Virus record (IMG/VR): IMGVR_UViG_3300028895_000122
DNA: 64,000 nucleotides
Origin: a virus
Reading direction: 5' to 3' (one strand)
Shown here in pieces: positions 4,130-60,694 of this stretch (the stretch's first letter is position 1; every line of letters begins with the position of its first letter). The notes under the pieces were generated by a model. The model did no database searches, had not been told where the DNA came from, and saw nothing but the letters and a program-made list of their open reading frames with translations. The position numbers and the translations under genes were made by a program.

Positions 4130-5101
4130 TTAGATTACTTTGGATGGATCCGTAATAACCTGTGCTAATTCTTGACCACCACGCACTGATGTTAATTCGC
4201 CTGGTACCTTAACTTCAAACCAAGCAACATTGTCGTCTGGATAATTAACTTGATTAAGTAATTCAAAATCAAGTTTTTCTAATAATACCTTTAATAATCT
4301 ACCAGGTGTATATGTGTTCATCATATTTTCTGCATTGCGTACACCAGCAGTATAATCGCAATCATTATATGTAAACACAATAATTCCACCAGGCTTTAGA
4401 TATCTTTTTAGTTCTATTAGATAATCTTCGATAGCTTCAAGTGGCATATAGTTGAAATAATCATAAAGAACAATTAGACCAAGTTGATTCTCTGGCACAT
4501 TATGTACCTTATGATCACGTGTTTCTTCTATATTAAGATATCTAATTCTTTTCTGAAACTCAGGAGTCCATAGTTGTTTAACTTCATCAAACAATGACAT
4601 ATGAGTATCACCAATATACAACGGAGTACATGTTATCAATGGATCAACAAATTCTCCAGATTCTGGTCTAATAAATAATGCTGATCGTTTCCAATCAGCA
4701 TGAGTCTCGAGCCGGCCTATAAAGTGTTCTTTAACCTTGTCTCGTTTAATACATGGAAAGTTTTGATATCGTTCTTTAACATACTCGTGAGTATCATGCT
4801 CTTTAGCAGTATCGTACCACTCGTAACTTTGTTGAATTAATGGTTTTTCGAGTTCGTAAATAATGTCAGACATATCACTTTTATATTGTTCTAACATTTT
4901 ATCAAACTCATTGAGGTGTTGAGTTATTTTGGCTCCCATACCAACCATATCTGTTTGGTCACAAGCTAACCCAATATCTTGTGCTGATACATCACCTAAA
5001 ATTTTAGATAATTCAGTATTAACATATTGTGTTAACTCATTGACGTGCCATTGCTCAACTGCTGTACGATAACTTACTAAATCACTTAATTTCATTTTCA
5101 A
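4130..5101 (-). CDS. hypothetical protein, possible degenerate class-I methyltransferase-like fold
   Basis: ATGA overlap with the polymerase C-fragment. A C-terminal LKPGGIIVFTYNDCD resembles a post-motif MTase segment. No GxGxG motif I was found. Confidence 0.35.
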   Translation of the reverse strand: MKMKLSDLVSYRTAVEQWHVNELTQYVNTELSKILGDVSAQDIGLACDQTDMVGMGAKITQHLNEFDKMLEQYKSDMSDIIYELEKPLIQQSYEWYDTAKEHDTHEYVKERYQNFPCIKRDKVKEHFIGRLETHADWKRSALFIRPESGEFVDPLITCTPLYIGDTHMSLFDEVKQLWTPEFQKRIRYLNIEETRDHKVHNVPENQLGLIVLYDYFNYMPLEAIEDYLIELKRYLKPGGIIVFTYNDCDYTAGVRNAENMMNTYTPGRLLKVLLEKLDFELLNQVNYPDDNVAWFEVKVPGELTSVRGGQELAQVITDPSKVI

Positions 5102-6084
5102 AACTCGAATAAACTTTCAAATGTATTGCTAGTATCAGTTGCTGCTGCCAAATCCCATTCTAGTACACCTAATAGATTGTCAACCTTCTGATCAATGATT
5201 GTACTTTCCATTAAGTTATCATCAAACGGCAACTCTTTATACCACTCGGGTAAGTGTGCTTCATCTGTTGGATAACCGATGCTAGTCCATCCTAACGGAT
5301 TTTGTTTTAATTTACATACAATGGTTTTCATACCATCTACAATTTGCATGGTATAATTATCATTATTCATTTTGCGTAAAGTATTCCAATTTAATGCTGC
5401 TCGTACATGCCCGGGCATGTTAGCTTTACCTTGCGCTTTCTCCATATTACCGTATTTGGTTAAGTTGTTAACACGTTTTGGTGTTCCTTTTTCCCAACTA
5501 GGCTTTTCGTGGAATTCATTCTTAAATTCTTTAATTTCTTCGATTAATTCTTCTCTAGTTGAACCTGTTAGTAGACTATTTAGAATATTGCTCAAAAAGT
5601 CTTGTACTACCTTTGGCGTGTCGGAGCGTTTAAGGTCTAAGCCCATTGCTTTTACTTTGCCTGGCTTACCATCTACATCTTTGCGTTCGCCTTCGTCATC
5701 AACCACCATAATAGCATATCGCTTTTTCGTAATAAAAAGTCCACTACTGCCAACCACTTCTCGTCCACACGCAATAATTTCACCGTACGATTGTGGACAA
5801 TGAAATGCCCTCTTAGCAAACGCAGGAAAGGAGTCATTGACTTGTTGCCCAAGCTCGTCGTATAACGCGATCGCAACATCAGTGTTCCATTCTTGATCTC
5901 CTCTCTCAACTGCCTCCTTGACAACCGGCCAAGCAGAGAAATAAGCCGAGTCAGTGTTATGTACAAGCGATCCGTTTGCAAAAAAGAACGGATCCTGGTC
6001 AGCCATTGACACATCATAAACATACTCCTCTGTTGTATCTAACTTTTCTACGGATTTAACTCGTTGTCTTTTTAATTCAATCAT
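5098..6084 (-). CDS. 43: DNA polymerase (family B, gp43) C-terminal fragment carrying a C-intein
   Basis: It begins MIELKRQRVKSVEKLDTTEEYVYDVSMADQDPFFFANGSLVHN (intein blocks F/G ending HN), then TDSAYF, which completes YGD|TDS motif C. A 285-aa C-extein follows. The protein ends NTFESLFEF, a clamp-binding-like tail. Confidence 0.85.
   Translation of the reverse strand: MIELKRQRVKSVEKLDTTEEYVYDVSMADQDPFFFANGSLVHNTDSAYFSAWPVVKEAVERGDQEWNTDVAIALYDELGQQVNDSFPAFAKRAFHCPQSYGEIIACGREVVGSSGLFITKKRYAIMVVDDEGERKDVDGKPGKVKAMGLDLKRSDTPKVVQDFLSNILNSLLTGSTREELIEEIKEFKNEFHEKPSWEKGTPKRVNNLTKYGNMEKAQGKANMPGHVRAALNWNTLRKMNNDNYTMQIVDGMKTIVCKLKQNPLGWTSIGYPTDEAHLPEWYKELPFDDNLMESTIIDQKVDNLLGVLEWDLAAATDTSNTFESLFEF
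5956..6084 (-). other. split-intein C-fragment (43 aa) at the N-terminus of the polymerase C-fragment
   Basis: VYDVSM...NGSLVHN immediately precedes the +1 Thr of TDS. Confidence 0.7.
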
Positions 6085-6293
6085 TTTGAAAACCTTAATC
6101 TAAACCATATAGCATCTTCTTCTTTTTCGAACCACCATCTGGTATTGGTATAGTGGTTATAGAATCTGCCATCTGAGTCATGTTCTCTACACCACTTACC
6201 TGCTTCGTTGATCATGTCCCTTGGTGGTGGTGGAGATGTATACCATTCTGATCGTCTGGTATTTTTTAATTCTGCTGTATTATCCCACTTCAT
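6081..6293 (-). CDS. hypothetical small protein (between polymerase halves)
   Basis: Packed ORF. No motif recognised. Confidence 0.3.
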   Translation of the reverse strand: MKWDNTAELKNTRRSEWYTSPPPPRDMINEAGKWCREHDSDGRFYNHYTNTRWWFEKEEDAIWFRLRFSK

Positions 6294-6294
6294 C

Positions 6295-6516
6295 TTAATT
6301 CACACATACAACATTAATTGGTAGTTCTTCGTCTGTTGCATATTCTTCTGGAAAGAACTCATCGTCTTCAGACCAATGTCCTATTGTCGGTGCAAAATAA
6401 ATTGGATTATAACCATTGCCTTCGTCATCGATAGAAGCACATACTTCTAATTCTGCATAATCTGGGTTATTGTCTATAATTTTTTGTAGACCTTCTATAT
6501 ATTCTTTAAGTTTCAT
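6295..6516 (-). CDS. hypothetical small protein (between polymerase halves)
   Basis: Packed ORF, acidic. No motif recognised. Confidence 0.3.
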   Translation of the reverse strand: MKLKEYIEGLQKIIDNNPDYAELEVCASIDDEGNGYNPIYFAPTIGHWSEDDEFFPEEYATDEELPINVVCVN

Positions 6517-6748
6517 TATCGTTTACCTGTAATAGTTTAACGGTATGCTCGCATATCTGTAATTCTTTTATCAGATGATCATGTCTTGCAACCATCTTTT
6601 CGTAATTTTGATACATTTGATGTGACCATGAGATAAATTCATTTATTTTGTCGTCACCTCCGCGAGCTAGTTCGGCTGCAAGTTCTGTTGGAAATAATCT
6701 TAGATCTGCGGCATAATGATATTGTGGTAACCAAGATTTAGTTCCCAT
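6506..6748 (-). CDS. hypothetical small protein (between polymerase halves)
   Basis: Packed ORF. No motif recognised. Confidence 0.3.
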   Translation of the reverse strand: MGTKSWLPQYHYAADLRLFPTELAAELARGGDDKINEFISWSHQMYQNYEKMVARHDHLIKELQICEHTVKLLQVNDNET

Positions 6749-7004
6749 CGTTTACGCTCAAATCTTGAATTGCTCTAGATAATATTTCTGACAAGTCGTG
6801 GAATCTAGGATCATCACCTTTGTCTAAAGTCGTACAGCATTCCGCGATTGCCCACCCTAATGCTTGAATTCTTTCTTGTTCTATATAATTTACTAATTTA
6901 TAGTATGCTGTTGTGGTTGGGTAAATACCATGCTCATCAGGGTGATCAAGCATTTCGCTAACGATATCACATACTACTTGTCTGTCTTTATCCATTCTAT
7001 ACAC
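6738..7004 (-). CDS. hypothetical small protein (between polymerase halves)
   Basis: Packed ORF. No motif recognised. Confidence 0.3.
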   Translation of the reverse strand: MYRMDKDRQVVCDIVSEMLDHPDEHGIYPTTTAYYKLVNYIEQERIQALGWAIAECCTTLDKGDDPRFHDLSEILSRAIQDLSVNDGN

Positions 7005-7951
7005 CTTTCTATAGTTTCTTTTATGTTATTCTTAAATTCTGATTCCCATATCACTAAAGTAGGAATACTTCTTTCTTTGAATAACGCATCAATTTTTTCT
7101 TTATCTTTTTTCCAAATATCTTCGGCAAGTAAATCTGCCTGACTATGATAATAGTTTACACTATATTTCTCTGGATTGCAATGCCAATAATCACCATTAA
7201 ACTCTATTGCTCGTCCTTTATGTACAATATCGTAGAAATTTGGTTTATTGTTAGCATACACACAATATTGTTTGGTATTGGCAGAATATTCTAAAGTTTC
7301 TCCTAAATTTAATTCTATTTGTTTAATAAACTCTAATTCTAAATCACTTACATAACCGCCAGTATTGTATTCACTTCGTATTTGCACGGCTTCTTCTACT
7401 GAACAATTATGTCTATTTTGGATTGAATCTATTGTATGTGATTTACCCTTGCATATTTCTATATATTTTTGGTTACCTTCTTCTACACCATATTTTTCAA
7501 TAAAGTATTCTTTAGTGTTAGTATATGCTTGTCTATCACAATAGGCAATCCATCTTTGCGATCCTTCTTCCTCTCCGTATTTAGATATTAAATTCTCTAA
7601 CGTAACAGCACGAGAACGGTTAAATTCCTTAAATTCTTCTTCGCTCCAACCATATCGTTCTTTTTTATATTCGTACGAGTTCGACTTGCGTTGTTTTTCG
7701 ACATAGTTTTGCCATGCTTTTTCACCTTCTACTTTTCCGTATTTCTCGACGAGATTATCTCGTGTTATCGCTGTTTTCTTTGCTAATTCCGCATCAACTA
7801 ACTGAGCATTTGGATATGCTTGTTTATATTCTGTTCCATTCTTAAACTTTCCTGTACACTTGTAAGCAAAGTGAGTCCATTGTAATCTTGGTGCTGTAAA
7901 ACCACATTCTAAACATTTTGGCATTATGGTGCTTCTCCTATCCGCATACAA
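6974..7951 (-). CDS. putative homing/selfish endonuclease: Zn-finger N-terminus, three EKYG.EEG repeats, C-terminal Vsr/DUF559-like PD-(D/E)XK domain
   Basis: An N-terminal CLECG...KC cysteine cluster. Repeats LVEKYGKVEGEKAW, LISKYGEEEGSQRW and FIEKYGVEEGNQKY. The C-terminal GRAIEFNGDYWH...PTLVIWESEF is similar to the Vsr/DUF559 ...RFWEHE end. It lies inside the split-polymerase locus. Confidence 0.5.
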   Translation of the reverse strand: MYADRRSTIMPKCLECGFTAPRLQWTHFAYKCTGKFKNGTEYKQAYPNAQLVDAELAKKTAITRDNLVEKYGKVEGEKAWQNYVEKQRKSNSYEYKKERYGWSEEEFKEFNRSRAVTLENLISKYGEEEGSQRWIAYCDRQAYTNTKEYFIEKYGVEEGNQKYIEICKGKSHTIDSIQNRHNCSVEEAVQIRSEYNTGGYVSDLELEFIKQIELNLGETLEYSANTKQYCVYANNKPNFYDIVHKGRAIEFNGDYWHCNPEKYSVNYYHSQADLLAEDIWKKDKEKIDALFKERSIPTLVIWESEFKNNIKETIERCIEWIKTDK

Positions 7952-7986
7952 TTATTTATCATTTATCTTTCTAAATAAATAGTTTT

Positions 7987-8135
7987 ATGCGAATTAAAGA
8001 AGTCACAAAAAAGGTTGTTAAAGATGACGCAGACTATAACAATGATGTTATGTCTGGCCATCAAAAGCCTATTCCCGAACTTACACCTGCTCAAGTCAAA
8101 AAAGCAAAAGCCCTCAAAAAGATTAAGAATCTATA
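7987..8135 (+). CDS. possible small Lys-rich ORF (49 aa), opposite strand
   Basis: ATG..TAG open frame MRIKEVTKKVVKDDADYNNDVMSGHQKPIPELTPAQVKKAKALKKIKNL in the gap between the HEG-like gene and the polymerase N-fragment. It overlaps the polymerase stop and has no clear SD. Confidence 0.15.
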
Positions 8136-10315
8136 GAGATAATTAAGTCATCATCCTGCAATTCTGTAGGTTTAACTTCTATTGTAAATCCGTCTCTATC
8201 AACTATTAAACTATGATCCTCTGTAACGGTTATAGAACTACCATCTTCCATTGTGACCTTGTATAGTTGTTTGGATGTTTTATGACGCATCACATAGTTG
8301 ATCGCTCCAAATACAGCCTCATCTTCATGAGCATTATAACCAAGCACCTTTAGATCATGTTGTGCTTCTGTGGGTATGGCATATTCTTTACCGCCATCTT
8401 GCTCTACCTTGTATTGAATCTGATTGTATAAATCTTCTATGGATATGTTGCCTTTGTTGGTGTTTAATGTAGTATCGCCTGTAACTGAGTCGCCGTATAT
8501 GATGCATTCACCAACATGATCATATTCTCCTGTTAAACATTGATTAACATAAGCGTCCATGTGTTTAGCAATTGCTCGCCCTGTTAACGTTGTGCTTTGT
8601 CCTATCCTAGGGTCAAAAAATCTACAATGTGGGTTTAGGATAGCACCATATAAAGAGTTAAGGTTAATCTTTTTAACGAGTTGTCGTTTATCCCAGAAAG
8701 CAATTTCTTCTTTATCGCTTGCTGTTTTTTTCTTTGCTTGTAATTCTTTACGTTCGGCATACCAACGTTCTAGTAACCCTGGAACAACACCTTTCTTTTC
8801 GTATGTAAAGATGGTACCATTTGCACTTATACACCAATTGGTATTCTCGTTAAATATATGGTCATGTAACTCTTTTGCAGTATGTACGCTTTCTTCGCCG
8901 TTAACCCAATCGACAGTAATTTCTGTATCTGTTCTGCGATCCATAACTGCTGTATATTCCAATGTACCAAACAATCCTTCCCAGGCTGCTGCAAACGAAG
9001 CACCTACATATTTCTTACCATTTCTAAACGTCGGCTCTTGTTTCTTTTTAATGTAGTTGTTGGTCATTATAGGACGTAGTTGTCCTACAATAGTTTCATT
9101 AGCCATGTTCAATGCACGAATAACAGATGGATACAGTGAGTTCAAGTCAACCGACCCAATCCATTTATGTACACCTTTTTTAGGGTATGCTACATAAGCA
9201 CCTGCTGCTTGTGTATCTTCTTTGTCGTGGCGTTTACGATCTGGTACTACCATTCCGCGTTCATGTGCTTCGTTGATGATGGCTTGCTCTGTTACCGCCA
9301 CCGCGCCCATTGTTGTAGGAAGCAATACAGTATTAGCATGAGCTAGTTCGTTTGCTAAATCAAGGAACTTGAGTTTCTCATCCAGTTTAGCAAGTAACGC
9401 AACGTCCTGCCTGTTATAGTCAATAAACGTGTAAAAGTCTTGGTTGTATAGTTGGTCAAGTGTGCCTTCATATTCTACCTTACGCTCGCCAAGTTCATAT
9501 TCACCAATTGCATCTAAGCTATAAGAATGCATTTCGTGATATGTATATTTTCTGTACAGTTGCATATAATCCATATGAACCCTACCAACTGTATCATATG
9601 TAATATGTTCTGCACCAAACCGTTCAAATGTACGTTTCTTAGGTAACATACCCCACAAACATAATCTACGAGTGTCGTCTTTACTTAATACTCGTGTAAT
9701 ACGATTTACTGTGTATGGTATATCAAAGCCTTCGCTGTTCCAGCCGCTATACACGTCGGCGTCTTCGATTATATCCAAAAAGGTTAATAACATATCACGT
9801 TCGTGTTCGAAGATAAATGTATTAGGAAACTCTTTACACATTTCTTGTGCTTCTTCGACTGATAATGTTTTTGGCGGCACCGCCAATGTAATAAGACTTT
9901 CCATCCAATCTAAATATACTGTGATAGCAGTAATCTTATTAAACGGATCGTCTGTTGGTGCAAAACCTTTTTCTTGGTGGAAGTCCACCTCGATATCAAA
10001 AAACGCTGTTTGTAGTTTGGGTGAGTCAACATCTTTATAGTTTGTTTCTATACACCTAAAGATAGGATTAATATCAGATTCAAACAATTGTTGACCTGAA
10101 TGCATTTTAATTTCTTTTTGGAACTCTTTGCCAGTTCTACATGAAAACTTCGATACTGGTGTTCCATAAAGACTTATGTATTTCCCTTTTGCTGATGGGT
10201 AATAAAATACATAGTCGGCAGGATATTCTTTGAATAATCTCTGCCCATCTTTTGATCTTTCTACAATTTTAATACGATCATGTTCACGATCGTGTATAGC
10301 GTCAACATAACTCAT
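8123..10315 (-). CDS. 43: DNA polymerase (family B, gp43) N-terminal fragment carrying an N-intein
   Basis: FFDIEV (Exo I), DLNSLYPS (motif A) and KINLNSLYG (motif B) are present. The extein ends ECIIYGD. A 121-aa SVTGDTTL...VTEDHSLIV... tail follows, then stop. Confidence 0.85.
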   Translation of the reverse strand: MSYVDAIHDREHDRIKIVERSKDGQRLFKEYPADYVFYYPSAKGKYISLYGTPVSKFSCRTGKEFQKEIKMHSGQQLFESDINPIFRCIETNYKDVDSPKLQTAFFDIEVDFHQEKGFAPTDDPFNKITAITVYLDWMESLITLAVPPKTLSVEEAQEMCKEFPNTFIFEHERDMLLTFLDIIEDADVYSGWNSEGFDIPYTVNRITRVLSKDDTRRLCLWGMLPKKRTFERFGAEHITYDTVGRVHMDYMQLYRKYTYHEMHSYSLDAIGEYELGERKVEYEGTLDQLYNQDFYTFIDYNRQDVALLAKLDEKLKFLDLANELAHANTVLLPTTMGAVAVTEQAIINEAHERGMVVPDRKRHDKEDTQAAGAYVAYPKKGVHKWIGSVDLNSLYPSVIRALNMANETIVGQLRPIMTNNYIKKKQEPTFRNGKKYVGASFAAAWEGLFGTLEYTAVMDRRTDTEITVDWVNGEESVHTAKELHDHIFNENTNWCISANGTIFTYEKKGVVPGLLERWYAERKELQAKKKTASDKEEIAFWDKRQLVKKINLNSLYGAILNPHCRFFDPRIGQSTTLTGRAIAKHMDAYVNQCLTGEYDHVGECIIYGDSVTGDTTLNTNKGNISIEDLYNQIQYKVEQDGGKEYAIPTEAQHDLKVLGYNAHEDEAVFGAINYVMRHKTSKQLYKVTMEDGSSITVTEDHSLIVDRDGFTIEVKPTELQDDDLIISIDS
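8126..8488 (-). other. split-intein N-fragment (121 aa) at the C-terminus of the polymerase N-fragment
   Basis: Block A SVTGDTTL follows YGD directly. Block B is TxxH (SSITVTEDHSLIV). Confidence 0.7.
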
Positions 10316-10572
10316 TATTGAGTTCTGCCCACCGTTTCAAGAATTGTTTCAAGCAAATCATAATCTTCCTGTGCTTGATGGAAGTTTGATTTATATGCTG
10401 TATTAATTGCTTTCTTTAATACTGCTGGTTTAACATCCATTTCTTCTGCAATTGCTTTAATGGTGTCAGTAAGGCCGCCACGTAATACTTCGATTTCTCC
10501 AAGTACACCGCAACCCTCATTTACAAGGTGTGTAAGTTTTGCTTTTTCTTCTGAATTGAAAGTTTTAGACAT
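10315..10572 (-). CDS. hypothetical protein
   Basis: First gene downstream of promoter P2. SD TAGGAGAAT. Confidence 0.4.
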   Translation of the reverse strand: MSKTFNSEEKAKLTHLVNEGCGVLGEIEVLRGGLTDTIKAIAEEMDVKPAVLKKAINTAYKSNFHQAQEDYDLLETILETVGRTQ

Positions 10573-10628: not shown

Positions 10629-10892
10629 TTATTTTAGAGGTGTTTGCTCGATTTGGTCTAATCGATTTAAGATATTTTGGATAGTTTCGTCTTGACTATC
10701 TAACTGATGTTGCATAGAAGTAATATCTTGTTCGTCGTCTGATTGTTCATCGTGGTGTAAGTTAGCTAATGCTTCTACATCAGTATCAGCGTGAGCATAC
10801 TTAGCACGAGCCTTTTTGATTGTTCTCGCTGCGTCAGGATTTCGGATAGTTAAGTTGCCTTCGTCTTCGTTTAGGAATTCAAACGATTTCAT
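10629..10892 (-). CDS. hypothetical small protein, paralog family B
   Basis: RTIKKARAKYAHADTDVEAL matches RKGRAKYAYAKSDLEAF of the adjacent gene. Confidence 0.4.
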   Translation of the reverse strand: MKSFEFLNEDEGNLTIRNPDAARTIKKARAKYAHADTDVEALANLHHDEQSDDEQDITSMQHQLDSQDETIQNILNRLDQIEQTPLK

Positions 10893-11179
10893 TTTAGTTT
10901 ATCTACCTTGCGTTGTAATGCTTTAACATCAGCAGTTAAATCCTGAATACGTTTCTTATAGTGATCACTTGAACGTTCTAAGTTATTAATGCGTGTTGCT
11001 TGTTTGTATAGTTCTTTTTCTGTGCCTTTGTAGTCGTCATCGACCATTTTAACAAAGGCTTCCAAATCAGATTTGGCATAAGCATACTTAGCACGGCCTT
11101 TGCGTAATGCAGCCGTAGTCTTAGGATCCATTATGTTAATGGTTGTTTCGTATGCTTCACCTAGGTCAAACAGTTTCAT
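10889..11179 (-). CDS. hypothetical small protein, paralog family B
   Basis: Tandem paralog of 10629..10892. Confidence 0.4.
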   Translation of the reverse strand: MKLFDLGEAYETTINIMDPKTTAALRKGRAKYAYAKSDLEAFVKMVDDDYKGTEKELYKQATRINNLERSSDHYKKRIQDLTADVKALQRKVDKLK

Positions 11180-13272: not shown

Positions 13273-13947
13273 ATGAAACATTATACTTATATGATTACAA
13301 ATACGTTAAATGATATGCAATATATTGGAGTAAGATCTTGTGACTGTGAGCCCAACGAAGATCAGTATTGGAGTTCAAGTAAATATTTAAAAGAGGATAT
13401 TACTAAATTTGGCATTGAAAATTTCACAAAACAAATTTTGAATATTTGGAATACCAGAGAAGATGCTCTCGAACACGAAATATCTTTACATGAGCAATAT
13501 AATGTATCTACAAATAAATTATTTTATAATAAATCAAAACAAACGTCTGTTGGGTTTGATACAACCGGTATGCCTGGTCCTTGTAATATGCTTGGCAAAA
13601 AGCATACAGAAGAATCGAAACAAAAAATGAGTAAGTCAAAAAAAGGTAAACCCAAAACAACGGAACATAACTTAAAAAACTCTTTATCGCATAGAGGAGA
13701 GAAAAATCCTTTTTATGGTAAGAAGCACACACAGGAATCCATTGAGAAAATTAGAAAAGCATCAACTGGCAAAAATAATCCGATGTATGGAAAACAACAT
13801 TCCGACGAAGTTAAACAAAAGATTTCTCAAATAAACAAAGGTAAGAAAAGAGTTAAAGTAACTTGCCCGCATTGCGGTAAAGTAGGTGGTGGACCTGGGA
13901 TGAAAATGTATCACTTTGATAACTGTAAGGTTAGTAAAAGTATTTAA
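13273..13947 (+). CDS. GIY-YIG homing endonuclease with NUMOD3 repeats (Seg/I-TevI-like)
   Basis: YTYMITNTLNDMQYIGV is a GIY-YIG motif. Repeated GKKHTEESKQKMS / GKKHTQESIEKIR / GKQHSDEVKQKIS are NUMOD3-like. It is a lone plus-strand gene in a minus-strand block. Confidence 0.8.
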   Translation: MKHYTYMITNTLNDMQYIGVRSCDCEPNEDQYWSSSKYLKEDITKFGIENFTKQILNIWNTREDALEHEISLHEQYNVSTNKLFYNKSKQTSVGFDTTGMPGPCNMLGKKHTEESKQKMSKSKKGKPKTTEHNLKNSLSHRGEKNPFYGKKHTQESIEKIRKASTGKNNPMYGKQHSDEVKQKISQINKGKKRVKVTCPHCGKVGGGPGMKMYHFDNCKVSKSI

Positions 13948-15823
13948 TTGATTCCCACCAGTGTTTCCCTTTTGATGGTGCATTCATCCAAGCGGTAAAT
14001 TCCTCCTCGTCGACACCATTGATGAAGTATTCGCGACCACCATGTGTAGTCATCATTACACCTTGACTACCATCTTTAAATTTATAATGATCTAAGTCTG
14101 AAATCCATGACGACCAAACAGGTTCTTCGTTTACCTGTTCTTCTTGTAACTCATCATGTATGATTTTATTTACGGTTTTTTTTAGAGATTCGTTAAGACC
14201 TAAGTGTCTTGATTCTTTACGCATGTTGGCTGGAATACCACCTTTGTCAACATCAAAGCCCATTTTTTCTGCTTCGATTCTAATTTGGTCTGGACCAACA
14301 TCTACTGTTTGATTTTGTTTAGTAATAATACCTACAGCTTCATTCATATTTTTTTTTGATAATGCGTTTCGAAGTTGTTGTATTTCTTTTCGATTACTTA
14401 ATCCTGCTACTTGAGCTGCTTTAAGTAATGCAAATTCTTTTGGAATGTCACGAGATGGATCATTCATAATCTTTATGAATATCTCTGTTGCAGTTTCATA
14501 ATTTTTTTGATGTAGTTTTGAACGTAACCAATCTAATATAAATTCTGGAAACAGAGATAATAACATGTCTGTGCCTATACCTTCGTCAAGTTGTTCGCTA
14601 AACAGGTAAACTGGGATTGAGCGTAATTTAGATTTTACTGCTTTATTTGTTCTATGGTGCCCGTCGATGATGTGCATACCATCTTGGTCTTTATATACAA
14701 CAGGGAAGTCTTCGTAGTCTTGAAATACTGATTCACCACCGCCTGTGTTACTTAACCAATCTTGTGTTGCTTGTAAGTTACGTGGATCAACATGTACTAC
14801 CTTTGGTTTTAAATCTTGTGATTCTATTTTCCAAACTATAGATTCGATATGATTTTTGGCATCCCAATCGTTTGACCAACTTGACGACATTGGCATGTCG
14901 TGTGTGTACATTTCGTCTTCTAATAATTGTTTGGCATTAGCATAATCTTTTGCACGTTCTGCTAAGTCTAATGCACGTTCTATATGCTCTACATCATTCT
15001 TAAAAATCATTGCTACCATTGGGTGGAAGTCTTGTGTGATACGTTTTTGTGCTGGCATTGTTTCTAATCCCATTGCACGTCTAAATGATTCTTCTAACGA
15101 TTCTTGTTCAACATGTTCTAAACTTAATTCTTGATCTTCTAATTCTAATCTACGAGCATATAAACGACCGATGTAACCATGATTACGAAGCATCTTAAAT
15201 GCTAAATTCTCTGGACTGAATTCGCCACCTTCTGCTAATCCTGCTTTGCGATATCTGCGTACAACATCAGCAACATTATCTACGGCATCTAAATCATTCG
15301 ATGCGATGGCATGTAATAATAATTCTTTTAGTTTTTCGTACTTTTCGAATGTTAAATCTTCATCTAAGTTAGCACGTTGTTGAGTTGGTATCTTAATCCA
15401 ATCTTTATTGGCAACACTATAGATACCCATACTAATATGTGGTTGGTTACTGTCTTGAACATATAATTCAACATCAAATCCTTTTACTTTGATATCGTGT
15501 GCATCATTATACTGTGACTTCTTGGCGTTAAATAATTCTGAATATACTTCTGATTGAGTTAATTTTTTAAAATCAACGATAAGATGTAAATCAATATCAC
15601 TATAAGGTGTGTAAGTGAATGCAGCATTAGAACCAGATACTTGTAAGTCTTCGATTACTAAATCTTCGAGACCTAAATGTTCACGGAAGTCATCAGCAAT
15701 GCGTAATAATGCAATACGCACATCAGTCTTCATATCGGTTCCATCCCATAACTCTGGATTGAGTTCATCGTGGAAGTTGATGTGATCGTCTAGTTTCTTA
15801 TTATCTAATTCCGTTAATTTCAT
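13931..15823 (-). CDS. hypothetical 630-aa protein with pol-beta-type nucleotidyltransferase motif and ParB/Srx-like DGHHR motif
   Basis: GSNAAFTYTPYSDIDLHLIV is a GS...DxD NTase signature. HIIDGHHRTNKA is a ParB-like DGHHR motif. The stop overlaps the NMNAT gene start. Confidence 0.4.
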   Translation of the reverse strand: MKLTELDNKKLDDHINFHDELNPELWDGTDMKTDVRIALLRIADDFREHLGLEDLVIEDLQVSGSNAAFTYTPYSDIDLHLIVDFKKLTQSEVYSELFNAKKSQYNDAHDIKVKGFDVELYVQDSNQPHISMGIYSVANKDWIKIPTQQRANLDEDLTFEKYEKLKELLLHAIASNDLDAVDNVADVVRRYRKAGLAEGGEFSPENLAFKMLRNHGYIGRLYARRLELEDQELSLEHVEQESLEESFRRAMGLETMPAQKRITQDFHPMVAMIFKNDVEHIERALDLAERAKDYANAKQLLEDEMYTHDMPMSSSWSNDWDAKNHIESIVWKIESQDLKPKVVHVDPRNLQATQDWLSNTGGGESVFQDYEDFPVVYKDQDGMHIIDGHHRTNKAVKSKLRSIPVYLFSEQLDEGIGTDMLLSLFPEFILDWLRSKLHQKNYETATEIFIKIMNDPSRDIPKEFALLKAAQVAGLSNRKEIQQLRNALSKKNMNEAVGIITKQNQTVDVGPDQIRIEAEKMGFDVDKGGIPANMRKESRHLGLNESLKKTVNKIIHDELQEEQVNEEPVWSSWISDLDHYKFKDGSQGVMMTTHGGREYFINGVDEEEFTAWMNAPSKGKHWWESIKYFY

Positions 15824-16717: not shown

Positions 16718-17431
16718 TTATATTTCCTCATTAATTATGTTGTATGTTTTCTTTAAAAGTCCGGGCGCACATATATTAAAAATAGTTTCTATGCCAGGAT
16801 CATTATAGTCAAAGAAAAAATGTTCTTGACAGTATTTACTTGGAAAATTTAACCAACGTTTAAAAGTTCGACATGGTACAACTGTATCGTGATAAATCTT
16901 TAAAAATTGTTTTAGTTTTTGTTTGTGATCGTTTGTTACAATACACGTTTTTAAATAAGTTCTATACTTGTAATCAGAATTTTTTCTAACCAATGAACCC
17001 GAATCGGAATTAATCTTTATTTCTGTTATGCCGGGATCTACTATACCAGGCAATGTTAATAATTCTTCTAAAAACGGTATATTATTCGAATAACAATAAA
17101 AACGGTGTGTTGTAAGAACCAACCGATATTTAAGATCCTGTTCATTGAAGAAGTTAATAAATGAATTTAAGTTTTCTTTTGTGATATCGGTAATCGGTTC
17201 TCTATGCATTGAGCCAACCATACCAAGTGAACGCGGTACATAAAACCCCGAACGTTTATATCTTTCTTTAATTCGTAAGCGTTCATCTAATCCGACACTG
17301 GTTAATCCTCGTACAGAATTAACTTCTTGAAGATACCCACATGCAGACCATTGATACTCATTAAAGAATAGTTTATTGCTTTTCTTTATACTATAATTTA
17401 GGTTTGAATTGGTCCAAGACAATGTATCCAT
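16718..17431 (-). CDS. hypothetical protein
   Basis: Packed ORF. No motif recognised. Confidence 0.4.
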   Translation of the reverse strand: MDTLSWTNSNLNYSIKKSNKLFFNEYQWSACGYLQEVNSVRGLTSVGLDERLRIKERYKRSGFYVPRSLGMVGSMHREPITDITKENLNSFINFFNEQDLKYRLVLTTHRFYCYSNNIPFLEELLTLPGIVDPGITEIKINSDSGSLVRKNSDYKYRTYLKTCIVTNDHKQKLKQFLKIYHDTVVPCRTFKRWLNFPSKYCQEHFFFDYNDPGIETIFNICAPGLLKKTYNIINEEI

Positions 17432-19688
17432 CGTCGCTTATTGTGCCCTCGGGCATTTTCTCCGTTGTTAATTTATTATTCTGTTCGAAGATTATTTCTT
17501 CACCATCTAAAAGAACTGTTAATGTTGTGTCTTTAAGATTTTCAAATAATATCTTTTTACTTAGCGGTACTTTAAGTAATTCATTGATTTTTCTTGATAT
17601 AGGTCTAGCACCCATTTTGCTATCATAACCAACATCTGCAAGAAAATCAATTACAGCTTCAGTAACATTAATTTTAATATTTTTATTTTTAAGTTGTTCT
17701 TTAAGATCTATAATAAACTTATTAACAACCTTCTTAATACTTAGCTCATCTAATTTGTTGAACTTAACAATCGCATCTAATCTATTACGCAATTCAGGTT
17801 TGAAGAACTCTTTAACAGCTTTATCTTCTTCTCCAGACTTTTCTAAGTCTTGCCCAAAGCCGATGTTAAAGTTTTCGTTATCTCTTGCACCTAAGTTACT
17901 TGTTAATAAAATAATGCAGTTCTTTATATTTACTGTTTTTCCTGAAGAACTTGTAATATGTCCTTCGTCGAGCATCTGTAACATAATGTTAGACACATCT
18001 GGATGAGCCTTTTCAATTTCATCAAACAATAAGATACTATATGGATCTTTAGTAATGTCTTGAATAAGTTTACCACCACCTAAATTACCATCTTCGTATC
18101 CTACATATCCAGGCGGTGCACCAATTAACTGTGACACACTATGTCGTTCTTGATATTCTGACATGTCATAACGTAACAGTTCCATGTCTAGGTTCTTGCT
18201 TAACAATTTAGCAAACTCAGTTTTACCGCAGCCTGTAGGTCCAAGTAATAAGAAGCTAGCAACTGGTTTATTTTCTGTAGTTAATCCACCGAAGCTAACA
18301 TAGATACGATCAAGCATTTCATCTACTGCGTCATCTTGACCGTAAAGTTTCTCTTTGATGTTGGCTCCTAAGTCGCGCACCTTATTACAATCTTCATTTT
18401 TAAGACGTTCAACAGGAACAGTAGTAATCTTCTCTGCTTCTCTGAAAATAAGGTCTGGTGTAATCTCAACATCCTTATTATCTTTAGCACGTTGTTTAGC
18501 ACATGCCGCATCTAATAGATCGATTGATTTATCTGGATTCTGTCTATCGTGGATATAACGTGTTGCTAAGTCCACCGCAGTAATACAGGCCTCTTTATCG
18601 ATTCGAACGCTGTGGAATTCTTCGAGTCGACTAGAAAGTCCGTTTAGGATTTTGATAGTTGTATCATGATCTGGCTCGTCGATATTGAGTTTATAGAATC
18701 GACGCATTAATGCACGATCCTGTTCAAATGTTTCGTAAAACTCTTCCCAGGTAGTTGAAGCAATTACTTTAAGTTTGCCGCGTGTAATAGCAGGCTTTAA
18801 CATGTTGGCCATATCTAAGTTGCCATTGCTACCAGCACCAGCACCTGACATAGTGTGTGCTTCGTCGATGAACAAGATACCGTTATTAAGTGTTTCCAAT
18901 GCTTTAATAACTTCTTGGAACTTTTCTTCAAACTCACCACGATACTTCGAACCAGCTAATAAAGATCCAACTTCCAATGACCATACTGTATGTCCTTTAA
19001 GAAACTCAGGAACATCACCTTCGGCTATTTCCTGTGCAAGGCCTTCTACGATTGCTGTTTTACCAACGCCAGGGTCACCTACCATTAGTACATTTGATTT
19101 AAACTTCTTAGCAAGAATTTCAACCGCGTCTTGAATTTCGTTTGCACGACCAATCAATGGTTCGAACTTACCTTCTTCTGCTAATTCGGTTAAGTTAGTA
19201 CAGTGCTCATACAGAATGTCTTCCGCTTGGTCGTTGTTTAATGTTACTTTAGCGCCTTCTTTGTAACTCTTGTTCCAGTGCTCAACAAATGAATCTTTAT
19301 CGACACCGTGTTTCAATAAGAAGTAAGATGCATGACTATTTGTTTCTGCAGAAATACTTAGGTAAAGATCAATGGTTGTAATTTGTTTACGTCCAGAGAA
19401 AAGAACTTGTGTTCCTGCTCTATTGAATATGCGTTCTAATGCATTTGTACGTTTTGGTGTGTCTTTGTATTGTGGGTTAACAATATTTTTAAGATTGACT
19501 AAATATCCTTCGAGTTCTGAATCAAATAAATCAGTATCAACTCCGTAGTTCTTTAATACTTCATCAAATGGTTCGAATCGAATAAGTGCTAACAGTAAAT
19601 GTTCTGTTAATACATATTCATGTTTCTTCTGTTTTGCAATGTGAATTGCATATTCTGTAATTTGTTCAATCTCTGGATTTACTTGCAT
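17391..19688 (-). CDS. ClpA/ClpC-like two-AAA+ domain unfoldase (765 aa)
   Basis: A Clp_N-like [10 protein letters not shown] segment. AAA1 Walker [23 protein letters not shown]2 [16 protein letters not shown]. The length matches ClpA (no ClpB middle domain). Confidence 0.8.
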
Positions 19689-59347: not shown

Positions 59348-59355
59348 TATAAATA
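59348..59355 (+). promoter_or_regulatory. T4-type late promoter core TATAAATA
   Basis: agTATAAATAcactaacaatAAGGATtcaaaaATG sits 22 nt before the ATG at 59378. Confidence 0.4.
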
Positions 59356-59377: not shown

Positions 59378-60652
59378 ATGAAAGTTAGTGATATCTTACG
59401 AAAAATTGCAGATGCAGTTGATGCAGATGCAGAACAACAAGCAAAAAATCAAGACGCACAAGCCGCTCTTCATGCTCAAGACATTGAACAAGCAAAAGCT
59501 GATGCTGCTGAATTACAAGCAGGACAGGTTGCTCAAGTAGTTCAAGCTGCTAATAATATCAAACGTGCTGCTGAAAAAGACGCAGATGCAGTTGCTATGA
59601 GTGCTAGTCAACAAGCGCCAACACCAAATACCTATGAACCAACTCCTGCAGATGATCAACAAGAACCAAACACGCACGAGTTAACACCTGCGGATAATAC
59701 CGATGATACAGAAATTGAAGTAATGGTAACACCATTACAACAAAAGCATGAGTTATTAAAGAAAGCAACAGATACTGCCAATGATGTAGATAAGTTTGAC
59801 GATGATATGAGTGATCATAGAGATAATGAGCTTGACTTATTAAAGAAAATGGCTGGTATTAAAGATTCGCAACCTGCACCAGATGATTTATCGGACACGG
59901 CATTAATTCAATTATCGTCAGACGAATTTGATGTTAAACTAGATTCTTCAGAATATGTAGGTGAAGATTCTTATATATTCTACGACATCGAAACCGGCTG
60001 TTTAAGACGTACAGATGGCACACCTGGCGGTACTCCAATATGTATCGAAGGTATGTCAAAGATTTTGGAGTTCCCTACATTTGGTGACTTTCCACAACCT
60101 GGCGAAAGCAATACCATTTATATTGCTGCCGACACTAACTTAATATATCGCTGGGATGGATCACAATACGTTTCACTTGTTAGTTTAGGTGATGACGACA
60201 ATGTCCAAGAACTTCCAACAGTTGGAGACTTCCCTGCTACTGGCACCACTGATGTTATATACATCGCAGCCGATACAAATTTATTATATCGTTGGGATGG
60301 TAGTAATTATGTTTTAATTAGTAACGATCACGAAAGTGCAACAGTAGTAAATATTTTACCAACCGAAACTAAAACTGTTATTGTAACAGTACCAGGTGGT
60401 AATTTGAGTGCCAAATACATTGTATCAATTTTAGATCAAGCAGATGGCCGCTTTGCTTCTTCGGAAGTAATGGCATCATATAAAACATTAGATAATTCTG
60501 TAAGCCATAATCATTACAGTTTACTTGGTGATAAAATCAAGTATCGCCCTGATGTATTGTTTAATACATCTTATATTGAACTCACAATCACAAACAACGA
60601 CACAAACCCAATAACCGCTAGTGTAAGCCGTATTCCTTCTATATCTGTATAA
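59378..60652 (+). CDS. tail-fibre/adhesin-like protein with N-terminal coiled coil and two tandem ~40-aa repeats
   Basis: Repeats ...FPTFGDFPQPGESNTIYIAADTNLIYRWDGSQYVSL / ...LPTVGDFPATGTTDVIYIAADTNLLYRWDGSNYVLI. Confidence 0.45.
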   Translation: MKVSDILRKIADAVDADAEQQAKNQDAQAALHAQDIEQAKADAAELQAGQVAQVVQAANNIKRAAEKDADAVAMSASQQAPTPNTYEPTPADDQQEPNTHELTPADNTDDTEIEVMVTPLQQKHELLKKATDTANDVDKFDDDMSDHRDNELDLLKKMAGIKDSQPAPDDLSDTALIQLSSDEFDVKLDSSEYVGEDSYIFYDIETGCLRRTDGTPGGTPICIEGMSKILEFPTFGDFPQPGESNTIYIAADTNLIYRWDGSQYVSLVSLGDDDNVQELPTVGDFPATGTTDVIYIAADTNLLYRWDGSNYVLISNDHESATVVNILPTETKTVIVTVPGGNLSAKYIVSILDQADGRFASSEVMASYKTLDNSVSHNHYSLLGDKIKYRPDVLFNTSYIELTITNNDTNPITASVSRIPSISV

Positions 60653-60694
60653 ATACAACATAGTAATTACTTAAAATAGGAGTTTAACTTAACA

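Follow-up and report, generated by a model that had tools for sequence, protein, structure and literature searches.

The virus record IMGVR_UViG_3300028895_000122 of IMG/VR, treated here as one stretch of 64,000 nucleotides (nt; the window), encodes on its minus strand a gp43-type family-B DNA polymerase (PolB) as two separate open reading frames (ORFs), the facing ends of which carry tails resembling the halves of a split intein (Table 1). The N-fragment ORF (8123..10315, stop codon 8123-8125) specifies 730 amino acids (aa), with FFDIEV at aa 105, DLNSLYPS at aa 390 and KINLNSLYG at aa 549; its extein ends in ...ECIIYGD at aa 609, and aa 610-730 make up the N-intein tail. The C-fragment ORF (5098..6084) specifies 328 aa, of which aa 1-43 finish in ...FFFANGSLVHN and are followed by TDSAYF. 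The polymerase is broken inside motif C, between YGD and TDS; the exteins total 609 + 285 = 894 aa, and 2038 nt separate the N-fragment stop from the C-fragment start. This two-gene layout and the extein sum had been put forward in an earlier note made from the sequence alone, and all of its coordinates and motifs were reproduced. Both aspartates of YGDTDS presumably belong to the catalytic centre, as in RB69 and T4 gp43.

Profile and sequence comparisons identify both fragments as parts of one family-B polymerase. The N-fragment matches the Pfam families DNA_pol_B (E=4e-28) and DNA_pol_B_exo1 (E=1e-19) and a PHROG family annotated 'DNA polymerase' (E=2e-145), while the C-extein matches phrog_1918 and phrog_262 (E about 1e-50). 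A scan of IMG/VR yielded 80 loci whose polymerases are related to that of the window (63-73% identity), with approximately 510 further IMG/VR matches lying outside this set. The N-extein is 65-73% identical to these relatives, and the match stops precisely at aa 609; the C-extein is 61-70% identical, and the match begins at extein residue 1. In the 70 relatives that lack the intein, the base before the C-extein match is the last base of the N-extein match. Five of these 70 uninterrupted junctions were read, giving ...IIYGDTDS(C/V)YF..., the sequence predicted for the spliced product, which bears out the earlier proposal that YGD and TDS rebuild motif C at the junction (IIYGDTDS.YF in intein-free relatives). 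In a synthetic intein-free version of the site, the insertion point would fall between ATCATATACGGCGAC and ACTGACTCGGCTTATTTC in one extract and between GGTGAATGCATCATATACGGCGAC and ACTGACTCGGCTTATTTCTCT in a second. A near-identity DNA search with window positions 4900-10500 against 50,697 phage records gave no match, so the phage appears to lack a sequenced close relative among isolates.

The split is preserved in assemblies other than that of the window. Contigs matching at 100%, with the same gene order, occur in the Logan assemblies SRR6963491, SRR6963492 and SRR14699967, in JGI 3300017990 and in ENA ERZ27256776 and ERZ27256773, some of which may be re-assemblies of the same reads; contigs of 3300018065, ERZ27256780 and ERZ27256791 cover the region from the small gene o70 through the C-fragment with one or two single-nucleotide polymorphisms. 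Three pipelines and several samples stand behind the matching contigs, separate assemblies of at least two sequencing runs cover the entire split locus at 100% identity, and the junction between N-extein and N-intein is spanned by a 31-kb contig of SRR6963491 as well as by the window's own contig. Independent assemblies retain the split where a continuous gene had been considered as an alternative, and mis-assembly is excluded.

The two tails align with opposite ends of the same intein models, and from these matches they are read as halves of one HINT domain, in agreement with the assignment of blocks A and B to the 121-aa tail and of blocks F and G to the 43-aa lead in the earlier note. The N-intein scores 51.8 bits against the NCBIfam model intein_Nterm (TIGR01445; cutoff 24.5). 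Against the Pfam profile Intein_splicing (PF14890), the N-tail occupies positions 3-93 and the C-tail positions 121-155, such that both model ends are covered. When fused, the halves align with the solved PolB intein 9hth_A over residues 2-164 of 167 (E=6.7e-15), and with many other intein structures. All residues of the splicing chemistry are in place, namely Ser1 (ORF aa 610), T89 and H92 (T89-E-D-H92), D145 (YVYD145), H163-N164 and Thr+1; an alignment with nine homologues shows no variation at S1, T89/H92, D145 or N164, while one of the ten sequences lacks H163. The halves are divided at the canonical endonuclease-insertion loop, with an ATG opening the C-intein. Charge is distributed locally, the C-terminal part of the N-intein being acidic and the start of the C-intein (ELKRQRVKSVEK) basic. 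Calculated masses are 84 kDa for the N-precursor, 37 kDa for the C-precursor, 102.7 kDa for the spliced polymerase and 13.5 and 5.1 kDa for the N- and C-terminal intein pieces. Neither half contains a cysteine. DnaE inteins use cysteine nucleophiles.

The largest ORF of the gap encodes a probable homing endonuclease, an identification that extends the earlier note. Its start is most likely the ATG at 7924, which follows the Shine-Dalgarno sequence UAGGAGAAG and was also picked by gene callers, and not the listed TTG at 7951. Homologues found by tblastn include proteins of the Aeromonas phages Aes123, Aes508 and AS-gz (annotated 'putative VSR endonuclease'), Tenacibaculum phage PTm1 ('VSR endonuclease'), Campylobacter phage CP21, Prevotella Lak megaphages, Klebsiella phage KP13-7 and others, and matches to the N-intein occur in the same records. 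The nearest homologues of the endonuclease, among the related polymerase loci, are 45-48% identical to it. In the four annotated records that were opened (Aes123, PTm1, CP21 and KP13-7), the endonuclease gene directly follows the PolB fragment bearing the N-intein, and in the Lak phages the N-intein match adjoins the endonuclease match. The protein matches phrog_22677 (E=3e-63), and a nine-member family profile matches the Vsr structures 1odg, 1vsr and 1cw0 (E about 9e-4, profile positions 234-311). In the C-terminal nuclease core, by alignment of hidden Markov models, D232 corresponds to Vsr Asp51, W247-H248 to Trp68-His69 and D273 to Asp97, and E241 lies at the position of Vsr Phe62 as the family's extra acidic residue, which is described by Taylor et al. 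and by Dassa et al. (PMC2677866). The upstream glutamate equivalent to Vsr Glu25 is probably E196 in SDLELEF, by position only. Taylor et al. place Hef-type and intein-associated members in the EDxHD family. DNA is presumably bound by the N-terminal two thirds of the protein, where three KYGxxEG repeats and a CxxC...H...C stretch are found. The ORF is intact, and its codon usage resembles that of coding sequence.

Upstream of this gene lies a predicted RNA hairpin in the 5' untranslated region (UTR). The 98 nt preceding the start codon fold with a free energy of -25.4 kcal/mol (z = -5.86; none of 200 shuffled sequences was as stable), and the Shine-Dalgarno sequence sits in the 3' arm. Within the hairpin, GATAAATA agrees with the T4-type late promoter box at 7/8 positions, and in relatives (C/T)ATAAATA is found equally far from the endonuclease ATG. 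A late-promoter role for this box is only weakly suggested, because the window as a whole shows no enrichment of TATAAATA (three matches against nine expected). Comparable hairpins are reported at 15 of 16 fractured-gene endonucleases, often with the TATAAATA late-promoter box, and are likened to the translation-damping hairpin of Aeh1 mobE, by Dassa et al. (PMC2677866).

Table 1. Features of the divided polymerase locus, in the order of transcription of the minus strand
Feature	Position	Strand	Content and evidence
PolB N-extein, aa 1-609	8489..10315	-	Exonuclease domain; motifs A and B; motif C as far as ..IIYGD
N-intein, 121 aa	8126..8488	-	Ser1, block A SVTGDTTL, block B TVTEDH, then stop; TIGR01445, Pfam, 9hth_A
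Candidate antisense ORF, 49 aa	7987..8136	+	Called in all assemblies; codon-usage score +0.40 per codon
Predicted RNA hairpin, endonuclease 5' UTR	7929..8006	-	Pairs the Shine-Dalgarno sequence UAGGAGAAG; contains GATAAATA
Vsr-like (EDxHD-type) endonuclease, free-standing, 316 aa	6974..7924	-	tblastn, phrog_22677, family profile against Vsr structures
o88 (85 aa from ATG)	6738..6995	-	12 homologues, 48-60% identity, phage-like contigs; coding score +0.38
o80 (80 aa), ORFan	6506..6748	-	Self-match only in 5.8 billion proteins; coding score +0.31
o73 (73 aa)	6295..6516	-	Two homologues; coding score +0.65
o70 (70 aa)	6081..6293	-	Widespread small-protein family; coding score +0.22
C-intein, 43 aa	5956..6084	-	Block F YVYDVS, block G SLVHN; Pfam, PDB 9hth_A, homologue alignment
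PolB C-extein, 285 aa	5098..5955 including stop (5101-5955 without stop)	-	Thr+1 start TDSAYF; second half of motif C, palm, thumb

Distribution of the split intein among related polymerases

The phage is not T4-like (Straboviridae), even though its polymerase is of the gp43-type family B; it is a jumbo phage, judging from the best matches of the polymerase among isolates, which are the jumbo phages PA5oct, Phosso, SCTP-2, Atu_ph07 and 121Q, and from one related locus on a 364-kb contig. The related polymerase loci searched number 87 in all (L001-L087) and include the isolates PA5oct, SCTP-2, Atu_ph07, Aes123, PTm1 and KP13-7.

Among the 80 IMG/VR loci, 70 have an uninterrupted PolB, whereas in ten (L008-L017) the gene is divided between YGD and TDS, as in the window, by a split intein homologous to that of the window, with a stop codon after the N-half in each except L014, where the contig ends. 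An endonuclease match is present in eight of the ten intein-bearing relatives (five complete, two cut by the contig end), and in one more intein-bearing locus the position of the gene lies beyond the contig end. In L011 (4252-4305) the endonuclease has been lost from a spacer of about 50 nt and the split intein kept; in L015 (3206-3409) the split intein is likewise kept, next to about 200 nt without an endonuclease match and with stops in the frame that was read. Both loci look like later stages in the life cycle of a fractured gene. Where the endonuclease is present, it abuts or overlaps the C-fragment in L008, L009, L013, L016 and L017, as it does in the isolates Aes123, PTm1, KP13-7, CP21 and PA5oct. 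The flanking synteny is kept in both intein-free and intein-bearing groups.

In a neighbour-joining tree of the exteins (without bootstrap), alleles with the intein are interspersed at no fewer than four positions among those without it, the patchy distribution expected for an invasive element. Identities of about 50% in the intein and endonuclease mean that synonymous sites are saturated. At a single site in a single gene, the 80 loci thus line up as a natural series of stages in the life of a fractured gene, from empty sites (70) through split inteins with an endonuclease (eight, five of them complete) to a spacer of 200 nt without a match (one) and loss of the endonuclease (one), with the gap of the window, and its added genes, as a further state.

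The insertion point is between YGD and TDS, with Thr+1, in the window, L008-L017, SCTP-2 and KP13-7, and two codons downstream, between DTD and S, with Ser+1, in Aes123, PA5oct/MIJ3 and PTm1, the inteins of which are still homologous (33-40% identity). One intein lineage is found at two points 6 nt apart in motif C.

Known split inteins and fractured genes

The arrangement is already described for PolB in Aes123, PA5oct/MIJ3, PTm1 and CP21. A close parallel is the PolB1 locus of T4-like phages of Aeromonas salmonicida (Aes123, Aes508, AS-gz and others; JN377899), in the GenBank records of which the gene is annotated as an 'intein-containing split DNA polymerase precursor'. As in the window, motif C is interrupted by a split intein lacking a catalytic cysteine, with halves of nearly equal size (120 + 39 aa in Aes123, 121 + 43 aa in the window), and a homologous Vsr-like endonuclease (36% identity) lies between them; the Aes123 intein trans-splices in vitro (PMC11923092). 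However, the Aes123 site lies between DTD and S, with Ser+1, two codons downstream of that of the window, the inteins are 34% identical, and the Aes123 endonuclease directly overlaps the C-fragment, with no extra genes. Gene 43 of Aes123 also has an additional, intein-less split (43A/43B1). In the comparison with the gene 43 of Aeromonas T4-like phages suggested in the earlier note, Aes123 gp43 is just 28-32% identical to the polymerase of the window over the aligning parts.

Among isolated phages, the closest polymerases (about 50% identity) are those of the Pseudomonas jumbo phages PA5oct and MIJ3 (PMC6892783). Their layout is that of the window, with N-fragment and N-intein, endonuclease, then C-intein and C-fragment, and the inteins are 40% identical, but insertion is between DTD and S with Ser+1, there are no extra genes, and between the endonucleases, of which theirs is 'Hef-like' and 560 aa long, only an IE(F/Y)NGxYWH core is shared (E=0.003). 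In addition, the PA5oct C-fragment begins with a leader of roughly 45 aa before the C-intein (L001:9085-9220), which the window and its close relatives lack. Two other isolates have homologous inteins at the same site as the window (YGD/TDS, Thr+1). The PolB of Salicola phage SCTP-2 carries it as an unsplit mini-intein with a terminal Lys-Asn and no endonuclease, whereas that of Klebsiella phage KP13-7 is split and accompanied by a Vsr-like endonuclease, differing from the window in a C-fragment leader of roughly 80 aa (L006:5204-5452) and the absence of extra genes. In Agrobacterium phage Atu_ph07 (L003:5001-6698, 6717-7970), PolB is annotated as two neighbouring ORFs 18 nt apart with no intein match, the break lying roughly 40-120 residues upstream of motif C; this could be an intein-less split or a frameshift.

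Fractured genes were described from ocean metagenomes for gp41-1, NrdJ-1, IMPDH-1, DnaE and others (Dassa et al. 2009; PMC2677866). That paper defines the combination seen in the window, mainly from phages: the intein is split, a hairpin lies upstream of the endonuclease, and the endonuclease is free-standing and of GIY-YIG or Vsr-like type. Loss of the endonuclease is one of the life-cycle stages it describes. In the accessible portions of the paper, only the endonuclease lies between the halves, and in 15 loci its 3' end abuts or overlaps the downstream half; in contrast, the window has four or five further genes and no such overlap. The split inteins of Nanoarchaeum equitans PolB and cyanobacterial DnaE, as cited in the same paper, also yield a polymerase by natural trans-splicing, as proposed here, but their halves are at unlinked loci in cellular hosts and have no endonuclease, a late stage of the Dassa model.

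Split PolB inteins have also been described from CP21 and two sediment metagenomes (PMC12707363), the three PolB candidates of that study each having one non-conserved cysteine and Ser+1. The published halves of Cys-less split PolB inteins (Aes123 PolB1, CP21 PolB1 and LCGC14 PolB2) measure 115-120 and 39-46 aa, and the window fits this group in the size of its halves, their location on separate ORFs and the lack of cysteine; its intein is homologous to that of Aes123 PolB1, but the differing insertion point makes it another allele. The small set of natural split inteins that protein engineers are actively mining thereby gains a previously undescribed member, entirely free of Cys and with Ser1 and Thr+1. 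For phage biology, neither the element nor the gene that it occupies is unexpected in kind; the expanded gap and the Thr+1 Cys-free intein are its modest points of interest.

Predicted trans-splicing and alternative readings

The locus is very likely a fractured gene in the above sense, in which PolB is divided by a split intein, restored by trans-splicing and accompanied by its own homing endonuclease. The earlier view of a naturally trans-splicing polymerase, as opposed to a merely fragmented gene, fits the computational evidence; splicing, endonuclease activity, co-transcription and homing are deduced from sequence features. An ancestral mini-intein in motif C of a jumbo-phage PolB would have been broken by a free-standing Vsr-like endonuclease gene at the usual endonuclease-insertion loop. 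The 84-kDa and 37-kDa precursors would be made from a single minus-strand transcript of seven same-strand genes, as suggested by the lack of a terminator-like site on that strand between the genes; the promoter and terminator scan gave chance-level results except at 10627-10599, where the sigma-70 consensus is matched perfectly ahead of the gene preceding PolB. The acidic C-terminal part of the N-intein may then pair with the basic start of the C-intein to form one HINT domain, which would perform class-1 trans-splicing by an N-O acyl shift at Ser1, attack by Thr+1, cyclisation of Asn164 and an O-N shift. The predicted products are a 103-kDa polymerase with an intact YGDTDS and intein pieces of 13.5 and 5 kDa. 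Since the two motif C aspartates are on different precursors, polymerase activity would require that the halves first be joined, or at any rate kept in contact. The endonuclease, its translation damped by the hairpin that hides its ribosome-binding site, would cut the intein-free alleles of co-infecting relatives, and repair would copy the whole insert. Four small accessory genes, and perhaps the antisense gene, were inserted later between the intein halves in this lineage.

Several observations weigh against this interpretation. The C-intein scores 14.7 bits against the NCBIfam model intein_Cterm (TIGR01443), just below the cutoff of 15.6, and each half taken singly remains under the PF14890 gathering score of 35.8 (34.3 bits for the N-half, 20.8 bits for the C-half). 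Both halves have a negative net charge (-13 for the N-intein, -3 for the C-intein), so their complementarity is merely local. An AlphaFold2 single-sequence model of the fused intein (predicted local distance difference test score 36) was uninformative and was discarded. With respect to the endonuclease, the solved family prototype I-Bth0305I (PDB 3R3P) was not among the PDB matches at E<=10, the family being very divergent. The separation of the halves by 2 kb, with five or six genes between them and perhaps a convergent ORF, could unbalance their expression. Finally, one contig of JGI 3300017990 stops 6 nt into the intein (window position 8483) and the next starts at 8487, with a 5-nt overlap of CAGTT.

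The breaks near this boundary, between 8489 and 8488, are confined to one sample set (loci L089, L090, L091 and L105), the contigs of which end or begin within 6 nt of the first intein codon on both sides; the ERZ27256776 assembly starts at 8492 and that of SRR14699967 at 8488. Contigs from other samples run across the junction. There is no corresponding break at the C-junction, and the pattern is not what a simple presence/absence or shared-segment branch in a de Bruijn graph would predict. The breaks may reflect strain heterogeneity or recombination at the edge of the element, which is perhaps currently polymorphic in the population. Nuclease genes are found at boundaries of genetic exchange between phages, according to the title of one study (PMC10448857). 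An exact-pattern scan of metagenome_contigs and viral_contigs with the first 30 nt of the intein returned no matches, and the source contig itself was also unmatched.

The most serious alternative, though doubtful on balance, is that the intein still splices but has become immobile, its endonuclease being inactive or without targets, such that the locus passes only from parent to offspring and ordinary illegitimate recombination brought in the small genes. Such a relic would resemble L011 and L015, which keep the split intein with the endonuclease lost or unmatched and correspond to step III of the Dassa model (PMC2677866). The loss in the window of the tight overlap between endonuclease and C-fragment seen in relatives points in the same direction, as does the low identity of the endonuclease to its nearest homologues. 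Conversely, the endonuclease ORF is intact and coding-like with all of its predicted catalytic residues, neither the regulatory hairpin nor the conserved motif of the 5' UTR has been lost, and intein-free target alleles are abundant among relatives; past mobility is also indicated by the patchy occurrence of the intein across the extein tree.

It is quite improbable that the intein halves, or the polymerase parts themselves, merely dock to give a non-covalent two-subunit polymerase, with no peptide bond formed, in the manner of the intein-less gp43A/gp43B of Aeromonas phage 44RR or the split NrdA of phage Aeh1. Split phage PolB and NrdA proteins that work without splicing are on record in the literature (cited in PMC2677866; compare PMC3045599), Atu_ph07 has its two adjacent intein-less ORFs, and even wild-type Aes123 PolB1 splices in vitro only to about 30%. 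Yet the residues of the splicing chemistry are kept in homologues down to 33% identity, for which pure docking modules would have no need, and, with the break deep in the active site between the motif C aspartates, 164 extra residues would probably obstruct catalysis. As for an assembly artefact or chimera, or a decaying pseudogene in a phage with another replicative polymerase, the contig breaks at the N-extein/N-intein junction and the Pol I-like proteins encoded nearby in the related jumbo phages SCTP-2 and Atu_ph07 lend it hardly any credence against a spanned junction, identical sequence elsewhere over several samples and three pipelines, full-length exteins without frameshifts that are about 65-73% identical to intact relatives, and ten independent relatives with the same split.

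Accessory genes in the gap and surroundings of the locus

The earlier note placed 2 kb and five ORFs between the polymerase fragments. The distance and the five same-strand ORFs stand, but the start of the endonuclease has been moved and a sixth, coding-like ORF of 49 aa has been added on the plus strand. The codon usage of all five genes other than the endonuclease resembles that of real genes, and overlapping spurious ORFs score negative. The same-strand genes are tightly packed, the spacings along endonuclease, o88, o80, o73, o70 and C-fragment being -22, -11, -11, +1 and -4 nt; the endonuclease overlaps o88, the o70 stop overlaps the C-fragment start (ATGA), and the four small genes occupy 890 nt before the C-fragment. 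On the other side, the spacer between N-fragment and endonuclease is 198 nt here versus about 30 nt in relatives. It is in this spacer that the Lys-rich 49-aa ORF is located, antisense to the entire gene block; it runs towards the PolB N-fragment and shares 14 nt with the 3' end of that ORF. The other five frames of the region score negative. Searches for this ORF found no homologues, and it is absent from all relatives. Where it lies, the AT skew of the region is locally lost.

Scans of the four small ORFs against Pfam and PHROG gave no matches, and their homologues come from sequence searches. o70 has 78 cluster representatives at E<=1e-3, mostly of 60-90 aa, and one of the o73 homologues (48% identity) lies in a small-gene array of a 311-kb contig. 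The homologues of o88 also occur in small-gene arrays, none of them in a PolB gap. None of the five extra genes occurs in the 87 polymerase loci searched, and no direct or inverted repeats bounding the inserted genes were found, only short matches at chance level. A conserved cassette of the four small genes was considered and rejected, with the homologues of o88 and o73 occurring singly in arrays of small hypothetical genes. From these singly occurring homologues and the absence from the 87 loci, it follows that the extra genes are ordinary phage accessory genes that landed in an already tolerated gap. A more speculative and rather unlikely idea is that the gap acts as a small cargo bay, in that repair after endonuclease cleavage would copy passenger genes along with the intein between jumbo phages; a homing element would then be spreading passenger genes among them.

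Beyond the polymerase block, the window contains a second free-standing homing endonuclease gene (13273..13947, plus strand), which encodes a 224-aa GIY-YIG protein (SegE-like) with three NUMOD3 repeats (Pfam). This gene runs against the direction of its neighbours, and its 3' part extends into the end of the ORF at 13931..15823. An ORF of 765 aa (17391..19688, minus strand) matches a PHROG family annotated 'ATP-dependent protease' (E=1e-234), an unusual phage gene; an FtsH-like protein is highlighted for the PA5oct group in the MIJ3 paper (PMC6892783). Two of the three exact TATAAATA boxes of the window (59348-59355 and 60648-60655, plus strand) lie 30 and 47 nt upstream of the ORFs beginning at 59378 and 60695, which have head-decoration-like PHROG matches; this placement ahead of structural genes hints at late promoters of T4 type in the phage. 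Two minus-strand ORFs of 87 and 96 aa (10629..10892 and 10889..11179), immediately preceding the polymerase block, are paralogues with 32% identity over their first 57 residues (E about 2e-7), forming a tandem duplication.

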